A DNA stretch of 64,000 nucleotides. Source: Candidatus Poribacteria bacterium. Lineage in GTDB: Bacteria; Poribacteria; WGA-4E; GCA-2687025. The stretch lies in the NCBI GenBank assembly GCA_963665845.2, contig OY762492.1:512001-576000 (forward strand). The letters are read 5' to 3'. Numbering within the stretch: the stretch's first letter is position 1; each line of letters opens with the position of its first letter. A program made the position numbers and the translations under genes. The notes under the pieces were generated by a model. That model searched no databases. It was not told where the DNA came from and saw only the letters and a program-made list of their open reading frames with translations. Positions 11,705 through 43,137 of the stretch are shown piece after piece.

Positions 11705-11800
11705 GGGGGCGGATAGGGTCCGGCGGCTCTACCGGTCTTCAAAACCGGATACGGGCGTTTAAACGTCTGTGGTGGGTTCGACTCCCACCCGCTCCCGCCA
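11705..11800 (+). tRNA. selC: tRNA-Sec(TCA)
   Basis: 8-bp acceptor GGGGGCGG/CCGCTCCC, CCGGT-CTTCAAA-ACCGG anticodon arm, long variable arm, GCCA end, 96 nt. Confidence 0.93.
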
Positions 11801-29861: not shown

Positions 29862-31259
29862 GTGTTTAAAAAAGTGCTTGTCGCCAACCGCGGCGAAATT
29901 GCCGTTCGCATTATCCGCGCCTGCAAGGAGCTGGGGGTGAAAACGGTCGCCGTCTACTCGGAGGCGGACCGCGACTCCATGCCGACGCAGCTGGCGGACG
30001 AGGCGGTCTGCATCGGACCGCCGCATCCGTCCAAGAGCTATCTGCATATACCGGCGGTCATCTCGGCGGCGGAGGTGACGAATGCGGACGCGATACATCC
30101 TGGAGCCGGTTTTTTGGCGGAGAATTCGCAGTTTGCGGAGATCTGCGGCGAATGCCGTATCGCGTTCATCGGTCCGACGCCTCAAAACATCGAGACGATG
30201 GGTAACAAGGTGGCCGCCCGTAAAGCCGCGCAGGCGGCGGGCGTCCCGCTGGTTCCCAGCTCTTCAAAGCCCCCGCGCCGGCGCCGGCGCATGCAGCAGG
30301 AAATGCGCGAAACGGTTGAAACCGAAGAGGAGGCGTTGAGCGTCGCCCGCGAAATCGGATACCCTGTCATGATCAAGGCGGCGGCGGGCGGCGGCGGAAG
30401 AGGCATGCGCGCCGCCCACAACGACGTCAGCCTCGCCAACCTGTTTAAAACAACCAGAGCGGAAGCGGAAGCCGCCTTCGGATCCGCAGAGGTGTACTTA
30501 GAAAAACTGATCGAAAAAGCGCGCCATATCGAAGTTCAGATACTCGCCGATCATCACGGCAACATCGTTCATCTCGGCGAACGGGACTGCTCGGTTCAGC
30601 GCAAACATCAGAAACTGATTGAAGAGACCCCGTCCGCGCTGGACGTAAAACGGCGCAATGAGATCGGATATGTGGCCGCTAAAGCCTCCAAAGCGATCCA
30701 GTACCGCAGCGCCGGGACGGTCGAGTTTCTGGTGGATGAGGAGATGAACTACTACTTTTTAGAGATGAACACGCGCATTCAGGTTGAGCATACCGTGACG
30801 GAGATGACGACGGGGCTTGACCTTGTGAAGTGGCAGATGCGCATTGCGGCGGGGGAGCGGCTCGATTTTGACCAGCGGGATGTGAAGCTGCAGGGGCATG
30901 CGATTGAATGCCGCATCAACGCGGAAGACCCGGCGAACGGGTTCGCGCCTTCGCCTGGGACGATTTCGCGGTACGACCCGCCGGGCGGTCCGGGGATACG
31001 GATCGACACGCATATTTACGCCGGTTATTCGACTCCGCCGTTTTACGATTCGCTGCTGGCGAAGCTGATTGCGCACGGCGCCGACCGAAACGAAGCGATC
31101 GCGCGAATGCGCCGCGCCTTAAACGAGTTTGTAATTGAGGGCGCGCATACGACGATCCCGTTTCACCGCGCCGTCATGGAGGACGCGACCTTCTTGGCGG
31201 CGAAGGCGCACACCGGCTTTCTGGAAACCTTCAACGCGCCGATTTCATCCCTGCGCTAA
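29862..31259 (+). CDS. accC: Biotin carboxylase
   Basis: ANRGEIA, GGGGRGMR, EMNTRIQVEH, ECRINAED. Confidence 0.96.
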   Translation: MFKKVLVANRGEIAVRIIRACKELGVKTVAVYSEADRDSMPTQLADEAVCIGPPHPSKSYLHIPAVISAAEVTNADAIHPGAGFLAENSQFAEICGECRIAFIGPTPQNIETMGNKVAARKAAQAAGVPLVPSSSKPPRRRRRMQQEMRETVETEEEALSVAREIGYPVMIKAAAGGGGRGMRAAHNDVSLANLFKTTRAEAEAAFGSAEVYLEKLIEKARHIEVQILADHHGNIVHLGERDCSVQRKHQKLIEETPSALDVKRRNEIGYVAAKASKAIQYRSAGTVEFLVDEEMNYYFLEMNTRIQVEHTVTEMTTGLDLVKWQMRIAAGERLDFDQRDVKLQGHAIECRINAEDPANGFAPSPGTISRYDPPGGPGIRIDTHIYAGYSTPPFYDSLLAKLIAHGADRNEAIARMRRALNEFVIEGAHTTIPFHRAVMEDATFLAAKAHTGFLETFNAPISSLR

Positions 31260-31954
31260 CCGCCGCCGATCGGACCCATGAATAGCCCGATGACATGCGG
31301 GGTGAACCAGTCGTTGACCAGAAACTCCACCCGCTGAATCAGCAGCGTGACGCGGTTCATGACCGTGTTGCCGAAGGCGGAGCCGAAACAGATCATCAGA
31401 AACCAGATGCCGAGGCGCGAGACGGAGCCGACGCCGCCCTTATGTTCAATAGAAAAGAAAAAGTAGGTGAGCGCCGCGAGCGTCCCGACTAGAACGATGG
31501 TGAGGTTCACCATCGGCCAAAACTCCTTCGCGCCCTCTTTGCTATACGGCGCGATGGTCGCGTACATCTGCTGAAAGATTTGGGAGCCGAGGATTAAAGG
31601 TATGGCGATGCCCGCGGCGGCGCCGAACAGGAACGCGAGCGGCAGACGGGTGAGCCATCCTTTCCCCGCCCAGAAACGCGCGAAAAACAGCAGCCCAATC
31701 AGAAACGGTATCAGAACGACAAACTCGATCCGCGCAGCAGGCTCGCCGTCAACGCCGACTGTCGCCCGTTGAAGCGGAACGATCCCATAGGGCCAAAGCC
31801 CGTTGAAGTAGCTGTAGACGATCCAGTAACCCTGGGACATGCCGACGAACAGATGCTCGGCGAATTTATAAAACGGGTTGTCCTTGTAAAGAAAGCTGTA
31901 GAGGCAGAGCGTCAAAAATGCGGCGATCCAGACGCCGATGGTTTCCCAGTTCAC
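31256..31954 (-). CDS. Conserved hypothetical multi-TM protein (membrane cluster gene 4)
   Basis: SFLYKDNPFYKFAEHLFVG, YFFFS, FGSAFGNTVMNR; about 6 TM segments. Confidence 0.8.
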   Translation of the reverse strand: MNWETIGVWIAAFLTLCLYSFLYKDNPFYKFAEHLFVGMSQGYWIVYSYFNGLWPYGIVPLQRATVGVDGEPAARIEFVVLIPFLIGLLFFARFWAGKGWLTRLPLAFLFGAAAGIAIPLILGSQIFQQMYATIAPYSKEGAKEFWPMVNLTIVLVGTLAALTYFFFSIEHKGGVGSVSRLGIWFLMICFGSAFGNTVMNRVTLLIQRVEFLVNDWFTPHVIGLFMGPIGGG

Positions 31955-32802
31955 GAGCCGTCCCTTTCGTCGAGTCGGCGCATCATATAGAGCGCGTTTC
32001 CAAAGACGACCAGACCGATGACGAGAAAATGCGCGAATGAGAGTACCGAAACGCGCTTCATGCCGTCGCCGGGGGCGTCCACTAGAGCTTCGTATTCGGC
32101 TCCGCCGAGCGCGCCGCCGAGCAAGCCCTGCAGCTGTCCGGAATCTAAAAACGGGTACATCTGCGAGACGATGACGCCTGTCACGCCGGCGGCAAGCGGA
32201 ACGCCATGCGGCTCATTGCCGTACTGAATCCAGGAGTCGACGCTGTCGCCCGCCGCAAAATCGATCACCAAGTTGACGTCGGCGAAGGTGGAGACGCCCG
32301 CCATCGCCGGCAGCGCGTCGAGAGCCTCGCCGCGCGTGTCCGTCTCAAAGAAGCCGGGTATGTTGCCTGCCATGCGCAAAATGACCAGATGAAATCCGAC
32401 CCTGTAACCGACATCCGCATAATGTTCGCCGGGCTTCAGGCGGCTTTCTTCTCCGTCCATGAACTCGTCGCTCGTCCGCACCTTCTCCAGCGCTTGAACC
32501 GCCAGCGCCGGCGAGTCCGCCGTCAGCGACATCATCATGACGCGCAGCTTTTTGCGGAAGCAGTGGCGCAGAACCGCCTCCACCTGCGGCTGCAGCTCCG
32601 CCATGGAGGACGGACCGTAACCGAAGGAGAGAATCACAAAATCGTTCTCGTTGAGCGATTCGATCTTGTCGTACACGCGCTGCGTCGCGTTCGAGACCGG
32701 CACAGGGAACGTGACGGAGAAGATGGTTGGAAGGATGACAAACAGAGCCATCAACAGAAACACCCAGCGCCGATCCATCTGTTTTGGCTGCTCGGCGTTC
32801 AT
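31951..32802 (-). CDS. Conserved hypothetical membrane protein (membrane cluster gene 3)
   Basis: N- and C-terminal TM; YPFLDSGQLQGLLGG..GGAEYE. Confidence 0.8.
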   Translation of the reverse strand: MNAEQPKQMDRRWVFLLMALFVILPTIFSVTFPVPVSNATQRVYDKIESLNENDFVILSFGYGPSSMAELQPQVEAVLRHCFRKKLRVMMMSLTADSPALAVQALEKVRTSDEFMDGEESRLKPGEHYADVGYRVGFHLVILRMAGNIPGFFETDTRGEALDALPAMAGVSTFADVNLVIDFAAGDSVDSWIQYGNEPHGVPLAAGVTGVIVSQMYPFLDSGQLQGLLGGALGGAEYEALVDAPGDGMKRVSVLSFAHFLVIGLVVFGNALYMMRRLDERDGS

Positions 32803-33755
32803 TCGTCTCCTCCTAGATAGGTTTGTTCAATTCCGAGTATGATTCGGAACGACTGCGCCAGCGCGCCGAGTCCAACGCCGAGAACAATCGCCCGGCGGGC
32901 GGCAAGGTTGGGAACCTCTAGCACCCAGTCCTTTGCTTCAGACGGGAACCCCTGCAGCGAGTCCGCAAAGCCGAACGCGCTGTTCCACCAGTGAATGAAC
33001 GGCGGGGTCAAGCCGAGAATGACGACGCATGCCGAGATGAGCAGCAGCGCCGCTTCAATGTTGCGCGCGCGAAAAGCGCGAAAAGCGGCGGACGCAATGA
33101 AAAACGCGAGCAGCGAAAACATGGTCGCGTCCAGCGGCACTTGGACATTCTCAAAGAGCCATAGAAACACATCCAAGCCGGGGCGGCGAATCGCGAAGGA
33201 ATCGCCTTGAACGGGAGGATCGCCGTTTCTCCATTTATCGACCTGAACGCGGACGACGGGCGGCGCGTCTTCCGCAGCCGCTTCGTCGGTCGGCTCCTCA
33301 ACAATTTTGCCTTCAAAAAAGGAACCGTCCGCCTTCGGGAGCTGGAGCCGATCCCCCTTCAAGATCGACTTGGCGGCGATGTTTTCGGCGCTGAGCATAA
33401 CGACCATGCCGTTGCGCTCATAGGACGCTTCCGCGCTGTACTCGGAGAGCTTCGATTTGACAATCTGCTTGGCGGGCTGGCGGTGTCCCTCAATGACGCC
33501 GACGGCCGTCATGCCAAACAGGGCGACCAGCGCGACAATGCTGTATTTCCAGTCGCCTTGGCGGCGGACGGCGCGCTGCCAGTGAAGCTTCACAAGGCTT
33601 GCGACGCCGAGAACCAGCGCGAACACTCCGATCAGGAGCATCCAGTCGTAGACGCGCCTGTTCAGCTCCTGAGACCACGCATGCGGCACAAAATATTGCG
33701 CCAGCATGACGGCGCCCATCACAAAGCAGACCGCGATCGGCAGCTGCATCCGCAT
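32799..33755 (-). CDS. Conserved hypothetical multi-TM protein (membrane cluster gene 2)
   Basis: PLDATMFSLLAFFIASAAFRAFRAR, PNLAARRAI, RIILGIE. Confidence 0.8.
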   Translation of the reverse strand: MRMQLPIAVCFVMGAVMLAQYFVPHAWSQELNRRVYDWMLLIGVFALVLGVASLVKLHWQRAVRRQGDWKYSIVALVALFGMTAVGVIEGHRQPAKQIVKSKLSEYSAEASYERNGMVVMLSAENIAAKSILKGDRLQLPKADGSFFEGKIVEEPTDEAAAEDAPPVVRVQVDKWRNGDPPVQGDSFAIRRPGLDVFLWLFENVQVPLDATMFSLLAFFIASAAFRAFRARNIEAALLLISACVVILGLTPPFIHWWNSAFGFADSLQGFPSEAKDWVLEVPNLAARRAIVLGVGLGALAQSFRIILGIEQTYLGGDE

Positions 33756-33756
33756 G

Positions 33757-35109
33757 CTACATCTCCACCTTAAAGATGTCGGCTAAATCCGGGGATCCGA
33801 ACAGCGCCATGACGACGCCGACAATCATCAGAATCATCAGAACCGCCTTGGCGACATCCTGGGCGCGAATGGCGCTCAAGAGCGGGGCGTCCTGGGAGAG
33901 GTAGGCGCTGGCGGCAAACAGCTCCTCGCCGATCAGCGTGTAGTCGCATGCGGCGATAAAGAACGGGAGCTGCGCGTCCCTGTCGGTGCCTGCAATCTGT
34001 ATCGCGCCGACGCTATGCCCAGTCTCCGCCAAGATGAGCGATTCGGCGTAAAAGACGCCCTGCAGGAAGATGGCGGCAGGCTCCTCGCGCACAATGATTC
34101 CGTCCACGCCGGCGGCGTACGCGAATTGACTTTCGGTCACAAAAAAGATGTTGTCGGGGTCGTATAGGTCCGGCCGCCCGATGCTTTGATAGGTTTGCTC
34201 TCCGACGGTGCGCATGACCTGCATGACGATCGGGTCGTAGCAAGGGACCATAATTCGCGTCGCATGTTCGGCTGCCGTTTTGATGACATGGCTGAAGATA
34301 TTGATGGAGGCGATGGTGGCCATCTGCTGAACGCTGCCGATGCCGGCGATGTAGAGAATGGGCTTGTCCATCTCGGCGCTGCGTCCGATCGCCTCTTCAA
34401 CCGCTTCCAGACCGTCAATGCGGCGTATGCGCGGCGGATCGCCTTCCCTGGAGCGGTAGGTCAAGACGACGAGCGTTCCGCAGAACAGCAGCGCCGCGGC
34501 GAGAAGCCATGAGCGCCCCGTGTGAAACCAGTTGGAGCGGGCGGCGGCGGGCGCGCTTTCCGCCGAGTTGACGGCGGAAGCCTCATACACTTCCTGAACG
34601 GCGTAAATATACGGAACCGCTTTTTCGCGGGTGAAGAGCGGATCTTTTCGGGCGGGCGCGGCGGAGGCGTCCCTGTAATCGCGCGCGGTCGGCGGAAGCG
34701 GCTCGGCGGTGATTTTCTCTAAACTGGAGCCTGGCGCGTCCGCGCGGCGCAGGATATGGAACCCAACGAGGCTCTCGCTCGGCTCGCCTTCATACTCCCA
34801 TACGACGTCCAAGCCCTTGCCGCTGTCGTCGTTTGGGACATCCGCCGCCCTTACATTCTTGACGGAAGAAGAGCTGTAAAGAGTGTAAAGAGTAATATCT
34901 TCCGCTGTGAATTCAGTCACGGATTCGTCAAATGTGATTGTGGACTCCAAGCCTTGTCCGCTGTCGTTCTGAGCATCGTCCTCTGTGACGGCATTATCGT
35001 CGGCGGATTCGATGGCGGTTTGCGCATGGCAAACAGATCCGCTCCAAACGCCGGCGAATAAAACCAGTAAGCCCGCCCAACGCAGCGTATGTCTCAAAAC
35101 GCTCTTCAT
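33757..35109 (-). CDS. FN3-like plus DUF6754-like membrane protein (membrane cluster gene 1)
   Basis: Signal peptide; ADVPNDDSG..W; IRRIDGLEAVEEAIGRSAEM; FYAESLILAE; QLPFFIAACDYTLIGEELFAA. Confidence 0.75.
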   Translation of the reverse strand: MKSVLRHTLRWAGLLVLFAGVWSGSVCHAQTAIESADDNAVTEDDAQNDSGQGLESTITFDESVTEFTAEDITLYTLYSSSSVKNVRAADVPNDDSGKGLDVVWEYEGEPSESLVGFHILRRADAPGSSLEKITAEPLPPTARDYRDASAAPARKDPLFTREKAVPYIYAVQEVYEASAVNSAESAPAAARSNWFHTGRSWLLAAALLFCGTLVVLTYRSREGDPPRIRRIDGLEAVEEAIGRSAEMDKPILYIAGIGSVQQMATIASINIFSHVIKTAAEHATRIMVPCYDPIVMQVMRTVGEQTYQSIGRPDLYDPDNIFFVTESQFAYAAGVDGIIVREEPAAIFLQGVFYAESLILAETGHSVGAIQIAGTDRDAQLPFFIAACDYTLIGEELFAASAYLSQDAPLLSAIRAQDVAKAVLMILMIVGVVMALFGSPDLADIFKVEM

Positions 35110-35143: not shown

Positions 35144-35680
35144 TCAAAATGCGGCGTGTTCAACAAAGGTATCATACGCTTTCTCATTAAACAACGCAAA
35201 CAGAACCAGCTCAAGCGACGCATCCTCCGCCAAAAAAGCGGCGACTGCCGACGACGCCTCCGCCGCCGCTTTATCCGGCGGATAGCCGAAGACGCCTGTT
35301 GAGATCGCCGGAAAGGCGACCGTCTTGCATCCGAGTTCGACCGCCGTTTTGAGCGCGTTTCTATAGCAACTGCGCAGCTTTTCAGGTTCGCCGGCATCTC
35401 CGCCATGCCAGACCGGCCCGACGGTGTGAATCACATACCGGGCGGGCATGTCGCCGGCGGTTGTCGCCGCCGCCTCGCCGACCGGCAAACCGTTCCGATA
35501 TTTTGTGCGGCGCAGCGTTTTACATTCAGCCAAGATCGCAGGTCCCCCCGCGCGGTGGATGGCGCCGTCGACTCCTCCTCCGCCCATGAGAGTACCGTTC
35601 GCCGCGTTCACAACGGCGTCCACCTCCAGCTGCGTGATGTCCGCGACCTTCGCCGCGGCGCGTTCGCCGAAACGCTTCAT
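35144..35680 (-). CDS. Macrodomain O-acetyl-ADP-ribose deacetylase (YmdB-like)
   Basis: VNAAN..LMGGGGVDGAIHRAGG, HTVGP, FPAISTGVFGYP. Confidence 0.93.
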   Translation of the reverse strand: MKRFGERAAAKVADITQLEVDAVVNAANGTLMGGGGVDGAIHRAGGPAILAECKTLRRTKYRNGLPVGEAAATTAGDMPARYVIHTVGPVWHGGDAGEPEKLRSCYRNALKTAVELGCKTVAFPAISTGVFGYPPDKAAAEASSAVAAFLAEDASLELVLFALFNEKAYDTFVEHAAF

Positions 35681-36771
35681 CCTTCGCTCCCTTCCGCCTC
35701 ATACCCGTTCATCGTGAACGCAACGCCGAGCGCTTGATCGGGCGTCTGGATCAATTTTTCGCATGCTTCGGCGGCGTTGTCAATCGGAACCATGTCGGTG
35801 ATGAGCGTCTTGACATCCAGCCGCCCCTCCGCCATGAAGCGCAAAACCGTTTCTAAATTGCGCTGCGTCGGGCGCTCCACAAACACAGGCGGATAATGCG
35901 CCCCCCGTTCATACGCTTTATCATGGTAGCCTGGTCCGGTGCGCGCCGCGCTTATGACGTCGATATTGCCCGCGCCGGCGGCGAAGCTGTGCTGTATCGA
36001 CGCGCCGCCGACAATGACGATGCGCCCCGTCTTATGTCCGTCGGGGGTCGTTTTTAAAAGGGCGCGCAGCTGTTGAAACGCGCCGGTAGCGTCCCCGCCG
36101 AACGCGATGACGCCGGCGTCAAATCCGTACCCGTTTGTGAATTCGTCTCTCACATGGCTGACATCCATTTCCGCCGCGTTTTCGACTCGGTCGGCGCCCG
36201 CCCGCCGCGCCGTTTCTAGACGCAGCGCGTTCATATCCAGTCCGAGAACATGCGCGCCGGCGATGCGCGCCGTTTGACATACCAGCTGCCCGACCATGCC
36301 GAGTCCAGCGACGGCGACATTTTCGGCGATGCCGATGCGCCCGCGCTGTATGGCGTGGAGCGCCGTCGCGGCGAGATGGCACGCGGCGCCTTCCTCATAA
36401 GAGACGCCGTCCGGCATTTTGGCGCACAGGTTTTGAGGGATGTTCGCATGCGTCGCGTGGAGCGCGTATCCGCCGCCCATCCCTGCGATTCGGTCGCCGA
36501 TTTCAAACTGCCCGCAGCCCTCCCCCTTGCCAATCAGAACGCCCGCGTTGGAATATCCGAAGGCGCGTTTGCCGGGGTTTTCTTTATGCCGGCTGCGTCG
36601 GTTTTTCACGCCGCCCAGCTCGGTGCCGGGACTGACGAGAGAGGCGCGAACTTCGATCAAAAGCTCGCCAGCGCCGAGCGGAGGGAGAGGAGCCTCCTCC
36701 GTCCAGATGCGGCCGTTGTCGTCCATGAAGACAACCTTGCGGGAAGAGGTTGAAGGCGCGGATCGGCTCAT
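35677..36771 (-). CDS. MDR/Zn-binding alcohol dehydrogenase-like oxidoreductase
   Basis: SPGTE, GYSNAG, GLGMVG. Confidence 0.85.
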   Translation of the reverse strand: MSRSAPSTSSRKVVFMDDNGRIWTEEAPLPPLGAGELLIEVRASLVSPGTELGGVKNRRSRHKENPGKRAFGYSNAGVLIGKGEGCGQFEIGDRIAGMGGGYALHATHANIPQNLCAKMPDGVSYEEGAACHLAATALHAIQRGRIGIAENVAVAGLGMVGQLVCQTARIAGAHVLGLDMNALRLETARRAGADRVENAAEMDVSHVRDEFTNGYGFDAGVIAFGGDATGAFQQLRALLKTTPDGHKTGRIVIVGGASIQHSFAAGAGNIDVISAARTGPGYHDKAYERGAHYPPVFVERPTQRNLETVLRFMAEGRLDVKTLITDMVPIDNAAEACEKLIQTPDQALGVAFTMNGYEAEGSEG

Positions 36772-37436
36772 GGCGTTTCCTTTTCGGCAGATTCAGGGGC
36801 TTGAAGCTCCGAAGCGGCTTTGACGGCGTCCAGTATCTGCTTTGTGGTCGGGCGGTCATGCAGATTGGCGGACACATATTTCCATTGGATCGCTCCGTCG
36901 GGATCAACGACAAAAACTGCCGCTTTGGAGATGTTTGGATGAAGCGTGTCAGGGTCAAAAAACGGGTTGCTTTCAGGGTCCAGCGCCTTGTACGCCTTCG
37001 TTATTTTGCGCGATGCGTCGCTCAACAACGGGTAGTCGATCCTCAACCGCTCCGCCAGCGCGAGCGACACTTCAGGCGCGTCCACGCTGACCGCCAGGAC
37101 CGTTCCGCCGCGCTGTTGAAAACGGGCTTTCGCTTCGCGCAGCTCCACGAGCTGCTTCCTGCAGACCGGTCACCAATGCCCTCTGTAAAACACGAGCGCG
37201 AGCGTCTGTCCGCGGTAATCGGCAAGGGCGACGGGTCTTCCGTTCTGGTCGGGCAGGGAGAAGGGCGGGGCGTAGTCGCCCAGTTCCGCGCCGACCGGCT
37301 GCAGGTTCGCCTCGGCGCCGTTTTGTTGAGCGGTCGCGTCTCCGTTCTTTGCGGAGCCTCCGCAGGAGAGGCATGCCAAAAGAGCGTATGAGACGGCAAG
37401 CGCCGCGGTCAAACGGGCGGGGCGGATTCTGTTCAT
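36768..37436 (-). CDS. Selenocysteine-containing AhpC/TSA peroxiredoxin-like lipoprotein (UGA at 37170-37172)
   Basis: Two ORFs join in frame as FYRGHW-U-PVC; SECIS-like hairpin follows; tRNA-Sec present in window. Confidence 0.88.
37139..37155 (-). promoter_or_regulatory. Bacterial SECIS hairpin
   Basis: GCAGCTC-GTG-GAGCTGC starting after a 14-nt spacer downstream of the in-frame UGA. Confidence 0.75.
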
Positions 37437-37567
37437 GGGCAAAGCATAGCGTACTTGGCGCGGAGATGTTAACGTCCAGCTTGGAAAATGACGAAGAGGG
37501 CGAGGCGCTTGCGCGTCAGCGCGCCGCTGTATAGACTCCTCTCAACGACTTCTGCAGGACGCCCTTT

Positions 37568-39100
37568 ATGCAGCCGCCCGCCGTTCAAACCGTATCCGTC
37601 TCCAAGCGTTTCCCCGGCGTTCTGGCGCTGGACGACGTCTCCTTTGAGACCCGTTACGGCGAGATACACGCTCTCTGCGGAGAAAACGGAGCCGGCAAAT
37701 CGACCTTGATCGGAATTCTCAGTGGACGATGGGCGGTCGGTTCCTACGAGGGGGAGCTGCGTATCGACGGAGAAACGGCGCGCTTCCGAAATGCGCGCGA
37801 CTCGCAAAACGCCGGCGCCGCCGTCATCCACCAAGAGCTTGCCCTCGCCCCGATGATGTCGATTGAAGAGAACATCGCGCTTGGAAGAGAGCCGACGCGG
37901 CGCGGGCTTCTTGACAAACGGCGCATGCGAAACGAATGCGTCCGCCTGATGGAGACGCTTCAACTGGACGCCGACCCCGCGGAGCCTGTTTCGCAGCTGG
38001 GCGTCGGACAGCGGCAGATGGTGGAGATTGCAAAGGCTCTCGCAAGGGACGCCAAGATACTCGCGCTGGATGAGCCGACCTCCGCCTTAACCCAGACCGA
38101 AAAGGAGACGCTGTTTGCCGTCCTTCAACGTCTCAAACGGAGCGGAACGGCGCTGATCTACATCTCGCACCGCTTAGAGGAGCTGTTTGAGATCGCCGAC
38201 CGCGCGACCGTTCTGCGCGACGGGCAAAGCGTCGGCACATGGAAAATGGACGAATTGACGCCGCCTTTTCTGGTGGAAAAGATGATCGGGCGCGAGCTGA
38301 AAAACCGTACGCATGTGAAAAAAGCGTCCGAGGCGCCGCCCGCCTTGACGCTTCAAAACTGGTCGGCGTACGCTGGCGCGGGTCGGGCGAAGGTCGATAA
38401 CTTGTCCCTTGAGGCGCGCCCTGGCGAGATACTGGGCTTGGCGGGGATGATGGGCTGCGGCAGCTCCGAGCTGCTGTTGAGCCTCTTCGGCGCATGGAGA
38501 GGGCGGACGGAGGGGCGGATGGAGATCGACGGCAAGCCCGCGCGCATACGCAGCCCGATAGAAGCGATGCGGGCGGGCATGGCGCTCCTCACCGAAGACC
38601 GCAAACGGGACGGACTCTGGCTGGATGAAAGCGTTGAGACGAACCTGACAGCGCCGATACTGAATGAAATCGCGCCGCATGGCGTCTTGAACCGCAAGGA
38701 GCGGCGGCGGCGCGCCGAAGAGACAGCGCGGCGGTTGGACATACGCCCGCCCGATGTTCAGGCGCAGGCGCGCAGCCTCAGCGGCGGCAATCAGCAGAAA
38801 ACGGCGATCGGAAAGGCGCTCATGACGCAGCCGCGCATACTGCTGTTGAACGAGCCGACGCGCGGCGTGGATGTCGGCGCGAAGGCGGAGATACACGGGC
38901 TGACGCGCCGTCTGGCGAAGCAGGGCGCCGCCGTTCTCATGGCGTCGTCCGACATGACCGAGATACTTCACCTTTCCGACCGCGTACTTGCGATGCGAAA
39001 CGGGCGCGCCGCGGCGCGTTTTGACGACATGGCGCAGGCGTCGGCGGAAGCGGTCTTGGCGGCGGCCGTCGGCGCCGATACGCGCGAGAATGAACCTTAA
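37568..39100 (+). CDS. Sugar ABC transporter ATP-binding protein (XylG/RbsA-like)
   Basis: GENGAGKST, LDEPT, TEDRK, LSGGNQQK. Confidence 0.93.
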   Translation: MQPPAVQTVSVSKRFPGVLALDDVSFETRYGEIHALCGENGAGKSTLIGILSGRWAVGSYEGELRIDGETARFRNARDSQNAGAAVIHQELALAPMMSIEENIALGREPTRRGLLDKRRMRNECVRLMETLQLDADPAEPVSQLGVGQRQMVEIAKALARDAKILALDEPTSALTQTEKETLFAVLQRLKRSGTALIYISHRLEELFEIADRATVLRDGQSVGTWKMDELTPPFLVEKMIGRELKNRTHVKKASEAPPALTLQNWSAYAGAGRAKVDNLSLEARPGEILGLAGMMGCGSSELLLSLFGAWRGRTEGRMEIDGKPARIRSPIEAMRAGMALLTEDRKRDGLWLDESVETNLTAPILNEIAPHGVLNRKERRRRAEETARRLDIRPPDVQAQARSLSGGNQQKTAIGKALMTQPRILLLNEPTRGVDVGAKAEIHGLTRRLAKQGAAVLMASSDMTEILHLSDRVLAMRNGRAAARFDDMAQASAEAVLAAAVGADTRENEP

Positions 39101-42345: not shown

Positions 42346-43137
42346 ATGAAAGCGACAATGTCAACATGGACGGCGGCAGGCGCGTTCGCCCTCGCCGCGC
42401 TTTTCCTTTTCCAAACAACGCTCCACGCGGGGCGGGAAGACTGCGGCGAATTGCCGAAAAACTTCCCCGTGCCTGCCGTTGAAGCGGCGAATGAAGACCT
42501 GAACACGCCGAACGACTACTCCTCGGTGGTCGAAGAAGATGAACGCGCCGGCGTCGTCTATCTGGCGCTCTCCAACGGTTCCTCCCCGAACGCGAACGAC
42601 TGCGGCTTAAGCCCGTCCAACGACCAAGGCGCATGGACAGGCTGGGGCGGTCCCATCGACCTTGAGAACGTGACAATCGGCGAAGGCGGCGGAACGCGCA
42701 ACGAAATCGTCATCGGCGGCGTCTATTACAAACGCGGCCTCGGCGCGCATGCGGTCAGCACGCTCGAATACGACTTGTCCGGCGCCAACTATGTCCAGTT
42801 TGAAGCGTGGGTCGGAATGTCGGACGAAAAAGATCCCGGCGGCTGCGGACACGGAGGAACGAGCGACTTCACCTTCTCCATTGACGGAACCGAAATCGTC
42901 AAAACGCCGACGCTCCCCGGAGCGGACGGCGGAGAAAATGTCGCGCCCTTCGAGGTGAAATTCGACATACCGGCGAACGCAGAAAAGCTGACGATCGTCA
43001 TGGGCGACGGCGGAGACGGCATCGGCTGCGACCACTCCAGCATCGGAGACGCGAAGCTGCTGACTTCCGAGGCTCTCTCGGTCGACCCGAACGGCAAAGC
43101 CTCCGCGCTGTGGGGAACGCTCAAGTCAACCCGATAA
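42346..43137 (+). CDS. Secreted NPCBM/NEW2-domain protein with conserved C-terminal motif
   Basis: IVIGGVYYKRGLGAHA, FEAWVG, DGGDGIGCDH; ends LSVDPNGKASALWGTLK. Confidence 0.85.
   Translation: MKATMSTWTAAGAFALAALFLFQTTLHAGREDCGELPKNFPVPAVEAANEDLNTPNDYSSVVEEDERAGVVYLALSNGSSPNANDCGLSPSNDQGAWTGWGGPIDLENVTIGEGGGTRNEIVIGGVYYKRGLGAHAVSTLEYDLSGANYVQFEAWVGMSDEKDPGGCGHGGTSDFTFSIDGTEIVKTPTLPGADGGENVAPFEVKFDIPANAEKLTIVMGDGGDGIGCDHSSIGDAKLLTSEALSVDPNGKASALWGTLKSTR

Follow-up and report, generated by a model that had tools for sequence, protein, structure and literature searches.

Does the in-frame TGA that divides two open reading frames of a Candidatus Poribacteria bacterium encode selenocysteine (Sec), and, if so, what kind of protein does the joined frame produce? 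The frames lie in a stretch of 64,000 nucleotides (contig OY762492.1, positions 512,001 to 576,000; hereafter the window). A sequence-only reading had joined ORFs 37170-37442 and 36768-37148 into one selenoprotein reading FYRGHW-U-PVC, without giving a strand. Both ORFs exist, and they form a single frame on the minus strand, split by the TGA at 37172-37170. Translation with TGA as U gave the same joined protein, ...FYRGHW-U89-PV-C92..., in which the UGA sits, as had been claimed, where the CxxC motif has its first Cys (U89-P-V-C92) and C92 is the second. The likely start is the ATG at 37436, with a TTG two codons upstream at 37442, and the frame stops at 36768.

36768–37436, minus strand: full selenoprotein gene, 222 codons with TGA read as U, encoding a signal peptide, a low-complexity linker and an AhpC/TSA (Prx-like) domain
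37170–37172, minus strand: Sec89, the in-frame TGA, first position of UxxC; in genome G004, Cys codons occupy the aligned site
37161–37163, minus strand: Cys92, second and predicted resolving residue of UxxC; Cys in 56 of 58 aligned rows and Ser in two
37182–37184, minus strand: Arg85, four residues N-terminal of Sec and invariant in 58/58 aligned domains

In a Pfam profile search, the AhpC-TSA match (PF00578) extended over the TGA (E 1.6e-33; 115.7 bits against a cut-off of 26), and a second Arg of the Prx-like domain was kept in 56/58 aligned rows. The database records give another picture of the gene. The four closest database proteins are C-terminal fragments of 126 aa, a word-based protein search gave mostly fragments, and the closest named record (Ca. 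Poribacteria, 86% identity) corresponds to the C-terminal part. The 126-aa tail of the window is itself present, with the GUG of the hairpin loop described below as its start codon, while an exact look-up of the N-terminal piece found no record. If these fragments and the usable GUG were taken at face value, the TGA would be a real stop or an error, leaving a pseudogene or two short genes. We consider this very improbable, as the PF00578 match runs over the TGA, the loop GUG is not conserved among homologs, and TGA occupies the same codon in other phyla as well as across the class. In an independent study, a second one, a contig (depth approximately 5) is identical to 37137-37326 without any difference, and a genome of the same genus has TGA at the aligned site, so that an assembly error does not account for the TGA; the TGC or TGT reads against which the sequence-only reading had cautioned did not appear in that contig.

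We compared 41 genomes, namely, the source genome and 40 relatives. The protein was matched in at least 39 of them (among the best 150 of 434 matches), and selA was over the cut-off in 36. TGA was found at 72 of the 80 aligned sites in the fetched loci; 41 of these TGA sites belong to the class (Poribacteria) and the remainder to Acidobacteria, Gemmatimonadota and Armatimonadota.

The source genome also carries the machinery for Sec insertion. The genes selA, selB and selD were above their cut-offs, selD carrying a TGA of its own, so the lack of selAB that had been named as a possible objection does not apply. The tRNA-Sec gene reported in the same window is present, yet its position there is incidental and unlinked.

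11705–11800, plus strand: tRNA-Sec (selC), anticodon UCA (RF01852, 70.6 bits; cut-off 47), approximately 25 kb away and acting in trans

A second selA-selB copy, with selA split over two frames, was observed on a small contig (G000:C3:1436-3984) and could be a copy of C1:1287780-1291053 produced by the assembly. We found no evidence in the Prx-like gene for reading of the UGA as Trp or Cys via an alternative code or suppression. Only one tRNA-Trp, with anticodon CCA, was present among the 48 tRNAs found in the genome, tRNA-Trp(UCA) was absent among them, and TGA was the commonest stop codon (1225/2603 long ORFs). In addition, copies with TGA have a locked SECIS element whereas those with Cys have a broken one, as detailed below, which makes decoding as Trp or Cys extremely improbable. 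Taken together, these comparisons suggest that the in-frame UGA at codon 89 is very likely decoded as Sec.

Downstream of the UGA, the sequence-only reading had described a 7-bp hairpin with a GUG loop at a distance of about 21 nt.

37139–37155, minus strand: bSECIS hairpin, 7-bp stem (37155-37149 with 37145-37139) closed by a GUG loop that starts 21 nt past the UGA

The bSECIS model, as stated in a 2026 review, consists of a loop of 3–9 nt with G in its two opening positions and a stem of 4–16 bp, located 16–37 nt from the UGA and with a minimum free energy of at most −7.5 (PMC13188914). The hairpin of the window lies within all four constraints (GUG loop of 3 nt, stem of 7 bp, spacing of 21 nt, −11.5 kcal/mol), and both its geometry and its energy thus fit the model as proposed. 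The energy of −11.5 kcal/mol, obtained for a 25-nt piece, corresponded to a z-score of −2.1, and 9 of 200 shuffles were equally good; in pieces of 41, 63 and 93 nt, the hairpin was no better than shuffles (z −0.82, 0.65 and 0.64), and in the 93-nt piece it was displaced by another fold. No Rfam family matched at the hairpin at three loci with E up to 1, and the terminal UGA of the gene has no bSECIS-type hairpin. A single hairpin is weak evidence, and it is the comparative evidence that raises this one above chance.

In 39 of the 41 in-class TGA domains, 6–7 of the 7 stem pairs were kept, the two exceptions being UxxS genes. Stem cells were paired at 91%, compared with 18–49% for slid partners, and 12 two-sided stem changes were observed against 4.3 in shuffles; since the genomes compared are kin, these pair counts are not to be read as a probability. 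The codons of the overlapping QLxxL peptide were also constrained. Its first Leu was CTC in all 38 copies, compared with 2/37 background QLxEL peptides (a codon background taken from this one genome only), and the codon after CTC was GAG in 37 of 38. The Gln/Leu codon pairs (n=38) were CAA/TTG in 24, CAG/CTG in 10, CAG/TTG in 4 and CAA/CTG in 0. Acidobacterial copies formed 2–3 pairs in this register, indicating that the hairpin register is not shared with them. The DNA around the site is highly conserved, and the 37 bases at 37139-37175 alone match many unrelated metagenome contigs.

Alignment with Cys homologs, the check that the sequence-only reading had suggested, yielded Cys codons at the Sec site in four copies of genome G004 and in one Abditibacterium locus. 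The four G004 copies keep 5, 3, 4 and 3 of the 7 stem pairs, and none of selA, selD and tRNA-Sec was over the cut-off in this genome, which is 61% complete. G004 can serve as a natural control, its Cys copies and broken hairpins occurring where these three components were not found. In an unrooted tree of 63 rows (no outgroup, eight Acidobacteria rows kept, short rows dropped), the G004 Cys copies fell among the Sec copies, three of the four as long branches; because of these long branches and the unrooted tree, a change from Sec to Cys is only an inference.

Family matches of more than 140 bits numbered 3, 6, 5, 4 and 2 in five genomes, with TGA inside the match in 20/20. Judged by these copies, the family is a Poribacteria lineage expansion of 2–6 members per genome that share one hairpin. 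Tandem UxxC paralogs occur at G000:C1:2982341-2983332 (L045, L046, L095), one with a lipoprotein signal and one with a cleavable-type signal; they are joined by an ATGA overlap and carry the same hairpin as the window gene, and a similar pair is found in G005-G007. At L025 (G020:C1:1502471-1505971), one frame contains two tandem UxxC domains with a hairpin each, as in a double-Sec protein. A UxxS subfamily of the class (L038, L042, L110, L111, L113, L114) has neither a signal nor this hairpin register and groups as a single clade in the tree.

A script that scanned the whole genome for read-through TGA codons recovered the three Prx-like genes together with two further candidates; as selD was missed, its output is not a census. 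Two further loci with possible Sec codons were observed. At G000:C1:944066-945376 (L093:367-1677, plus strand), a secreted 437-aa candidate selenoprotein combines a CxU motif with a hairpin of 7 bp, with TGA at the site in 5/5 covering loci from four genomes. It had no Pfam or NCBIfam match. Most of its 109 database homologs were tails starting downstream of the site; W was read there in the two homologs that cover it, and a Cys form was not seen among them; this candidate stands further from known kinds than the Prx-like UxxC gene does. At about G000:C1:855700-856900 (L092, minus strand), a ResA-like protein of the WAxxUGC type with TPR repeats has an in-frame TGA and scored 160.9 bits against NF041054, below the cut-off of 300.

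Next to the question of decoding stands that of location. The sequence-only reading had noticed an N-terminal lipobox, LLAC/CLSC, and both motifs are present, ending at C22 and C25.

37362–37436, minus strand: predicted lipoprotein signal peptide, with three Arg and a hydrophobic core, and with two candidate Cys, Cys22 in LLAC and Cys25 in CLSC

A same-genus ortholog reads LLTC-LSC, so that LLAC is changed and C25 kept, and in family orthologs the signal closes with GC or AC, the next residue being S, A or G. For these two reasons, Cys25 is the likelier residue to be lipidated. Signals were called with a heuristic of our own, a loosened PROSITE-like rule, in which at least one lipobox (L021) was false by eye. 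By this heuristic, 40 of the 44 in-class UxxC domains carry export signals (30 lipobox, 10 signal or anchor), two have none and two are cut by the locus end; by the same heuristic, signals were called in 1/30 UxxC genes of other phyla, with 0/30 lipoprotein calls, and in 0/6 UxxS genes. Both lgt and lspA are present in the genome, which also encodes a full DsbD, in which the N-terminal, membrane and thioredoxin domains are all present. The product is likely to be a membrane-anchored envelope lipoprotein as judged from its predicted signal. The earlier claim of an extracytoplasmic Sec enzyme therefore stands as regards the lipobox and the presence of Lgt and LspA, with the location itself a prediction. 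Secreted proteins encoded at 42346-43137 of the window and at L046, as well as paralogs in G005-G007, have a similar K-x-A-x-x-W-x-x-L-K-S tail that resembles a C-terminal sorting signal specific to the lineage.

We also considered the transcription unit, in which the Prx-like gene had been proposed as the first gene of an operon whose downstream translation is gated by selenium-dependent readthrough.

37443–37472, minus strand: sigma70-like promoter match (9/12), whose −10 box lies 6 nt upstream of the ATG at 37436
36768–36781, minus strand: junction, where the true stop overlaps the next gene as ATGA and an SD-like AGGA is found
35677–36771, minus strand: zinc-binding dehydrogenase-family gene (PF00107), a context gene and not a conserved partner

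The first position in the unit agrees with our findings, since the upstream gene (37568-39100) lies on the other strand. The −10 box is also kept in the same-genus genome, and the message is possibly leaderless; this is unproven because −10 boxes so close to starts showed no genome-wide enrichment. The gating proposal was not supported. In its strong form, the UGA would be a selected selenium switch, at which failed readthrough shuts down the dehydrogenase, macrodomain and DUF6754 genes. The ATGA overlap fits such a switch, rho is present in the genome, the fdhF transcript of Treponema primitia is described as truncated in a selenium-dependent manner at its Sec codon (PMC3892789), and in one of 12 ortholog loci the dehydrogenase directly follows selA (L158, G014:C342:305-4333). 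However, only 2/12 ortholog loci, both of this genus, place the dehydrogenase after the Prx-like gene, and no dehydrogenase lies near the homologs in G003-G007 (loci of 7–10 kb, two of which reach a contig end). ATGA overlaps are ordinary (234 of the 1164 closely spaced pairs on one strand), an SD-like AGGA belongs to the next gene itself, and a promoter-like match of 10/12 precedes the macrodomain gene. A selected switch is thus unlikely, and we give it little credence, although a passive, incidental polar effect on the downstream genes could occur without selection. Further along the same strand, at 31256-35109 of the window, four consecutive genes encode membrane proteins, one of them DUF6754 and three without a Pfam match.

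To what enzyme type, then, does the domain belong? An AlphaFold2 model of the Prx-like domain had a pLDDT of 93, and the best sequence and fold matches were BCP/PrxQ/AhpE, placing the domain in the Prx fold. All 30 of the Foldseek matches listed were Prx-family entries, and the sequence match was better for BCP/AhpE (E 1e-21) than for ResA (3e-11). The fold is shared with PDB 2cx3, 2ywn, 3hjp and 1xvw (TM-score 0.87 for 3hjp), and Cys92 aligns with the peroxidatic Cys of BCP/PrxQ. Compared with the PxxxT/SxxC motif of true peroxiredoxins, however, Pro is replaced by Arg and Thr/Ser by Sec, and Ala stands in place of the catalytic Arg (the column holds Pro in 52, Ala in 3 and Val in 3 of 58 rows). 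The known Sec-Prx motif is TxxU, whereas that of the Poribacteria protein is UxxC. A true peroxiredoxin of the BCP/PrxQ/AhpE type was rejected on these residues, and the protein scored under every NCBIfam cut-off, those for Prx included. The label 'peroxiredoxin-like', given in the sequence-only reading, therefore holds for the fold and not for the catalytic triad.

Two other assignments were rejected. NF040769, the SelL-related redox protein, was the best NCBIfam match and was matched by 58/58 members, but the window gene, at 68.5 bits, falls short of the cut-off of 120 and is not a member. Membership in ResA/TlpA failed, the scores being 56.7 bits (cut-off 170) and 30.2 bits (cut-off 230), and the cis-Pro column is Ala in the window gene.

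A parallel for the active site is the motif of PRXL2B type, which we take to be CDD PRX_like2 (cd02970). Like the Poribacteria protein, human PRXL2B, or prostamide/prostaglandin F synthase, is described as having a Trx/Prx-like fold without the Prx triad; it has Arg40, Cys44 and Cys47, with the Arg four residues before CxxC as in R85-x-x-x-U89-x-x-C92, and reduces an endoperoxide (PMC12938796). As described there, it differs in being eukaryotic and Cys-only, and in having a second Arg (Arg41) where the Poribacteria protein has Gly (PMC12938796). The parallel between Arg85 and Arg40 rests on spacing rather than alignment, since PRXL2B was not among the PDB matches listed. A further comparison is the envelope peroxide pathway of Caulobacter, which is fed by a DsbD-class protein and in which the exported Prx-fold proteins of ScsB-TlpA-PprX and PrxL are reduced by a DsbD-class transporter (PMC3322552), similar to what is proposed here. 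In the same account, PprX and PrxL are Cys-based, PprX being a true Prx, and PrxL belongs to another Prx-like subfamily (cd02969) with distant cysteines and had no detectable peroxidase activity (PMC3322552).

The explanation that we favour, at about even confidence, is that one UGA-Sec gene would encode an envelope lipoprotein of Prx-type fold with an R-x-x-x-U-x-x-C site, predicted to act as a selenol-based reductase. SelB and Sec-tRNA would read the hairpin 21 nt downstream and insert Sec89, a step with strong comparative support. The precursor would be exported, lipidated at Cys25 by Lgt and cleaved by LspA, as predicted from the presence of both genes. From the motif, the Sec89 selenolate would attack the oxidant and Cys92 would resolve it into an Se-S bond, with Arg85 possibly taking the role of Arg40 in human PRXL2B. 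DsbD may then recharge the Sec protein, either directly or via a TlpA/ResA-like protein of the same genome. Peroxides or similar small oxidants may be the likeliest substrates, a proposal that we regard as evenly balanced.

The same Sec lipoprotein could instead be a TlpA/ResA-like protein-disulfide reductase or electron relay of the envelope that does not act on peroxides. Sec occupies the nucleophile position of thioredoxin, and the cis-Pro column is Pro in 52/58 rows, as in thioredoxin-type proteins, although the window gene and its closest orthologs carry Ala or Val there. The ResA model was matched by 58/58 members (best E 3.5e-23) with the window gene below the cut-off, whereas BCP/AhpE is nearer than ResA in both the sequence and Foldseek comparisons given above. 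The inactivity of PrxL as a peroxidase and the name thiol:disulfide oxidoreductase, which the 2026 review gives to the family (PMC13188914), also favour a disulfide substrate; on the other hand, the related UxxS subfamily manages without the second Cys. This role is a real but lesser possibility, and we rank the peroxide-type substrate above it. Both roles would cycle through the U89-C92 bond and draw on DsbD.

By domain and motif, the window protein is of the known 'Prx-like UxxC' (PF00578) selenoprotein type. This type was defined by a UxxC motif rather than TxxU in the 2005 Sargasso Sea survey, which counted 22 sequences of a 'Prx-like protein' (PMC1088965), and the GOS survey lists 225 sequences as 'Prx-like 1' (PMC2398784). 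The 2026 review gives WP_010940744.1 as the published type sequence and describes the Prx-like thiol:disulfide oxidoreductase (UxxC/UxxU) as predicted with high confidence and not experimentally shown (PMC13188914). The surveyed proteins and ours share PF00578, UxxC, an in-frame UGA with a downstream bSECIS and Cys homologs; signal peptides and Poribacteria do not figure in the surveys' accounts of Prx-like proteins, whereas the present protein is a predicted lipoprotein with 2–6 copies per genome and one hairpin. Exported selenoproteins are also on record. MccSep of Geobacter has been shown to be periplasmic (PMC13510729), and SaoB and the Sec forms of the lipoprotein SaoX are predicted to be exported (bioRxiv 10.1101/2022.07.06.499078); these combine Sec with a signal peptide and are extracytoplasmic like the Poribacteria protein, but are unrelated in fold and function. 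The novelty implied by the sequence-only reading is thus not upheld, as both the family and exported selenoproteins had been published. Among the papers listed for Poribacteria and selenocysteine or selenoproteins, none dealt with this family, although the supplements of the large surveys may include Poribacteria.

These results correct the annotation of a gene for which database records cover no more than the 126-aa tail and lack both signal peptide and active site. They provide a clean case of a SECIS element that synonymous codons keep fixed and whose pairing is disrupted in copies with Cys in place of Sec, and the 37-base stretch of UGA plus hairpin (37139-37175) is usable as a probe for the family. 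As the Prx-like UxxC family, in the wording of the 2026 review, is still predicted rather than experimentally shown after twenty years, an assay would be useful. Somewhat speculatively, Poribacteria may possess a set of envelope Sec peroxidases, that is, an expanded and exported group with the R-x-x-x-U-x-x-C site and one codon-locked SECIS, in which Cys would have taken the place of Sec in every copy of a lineage that lost Sec. If this is true, the window gene would offer a first opportunity to test a PRXL2-type selenoperoxidase of the bacterial envelope.
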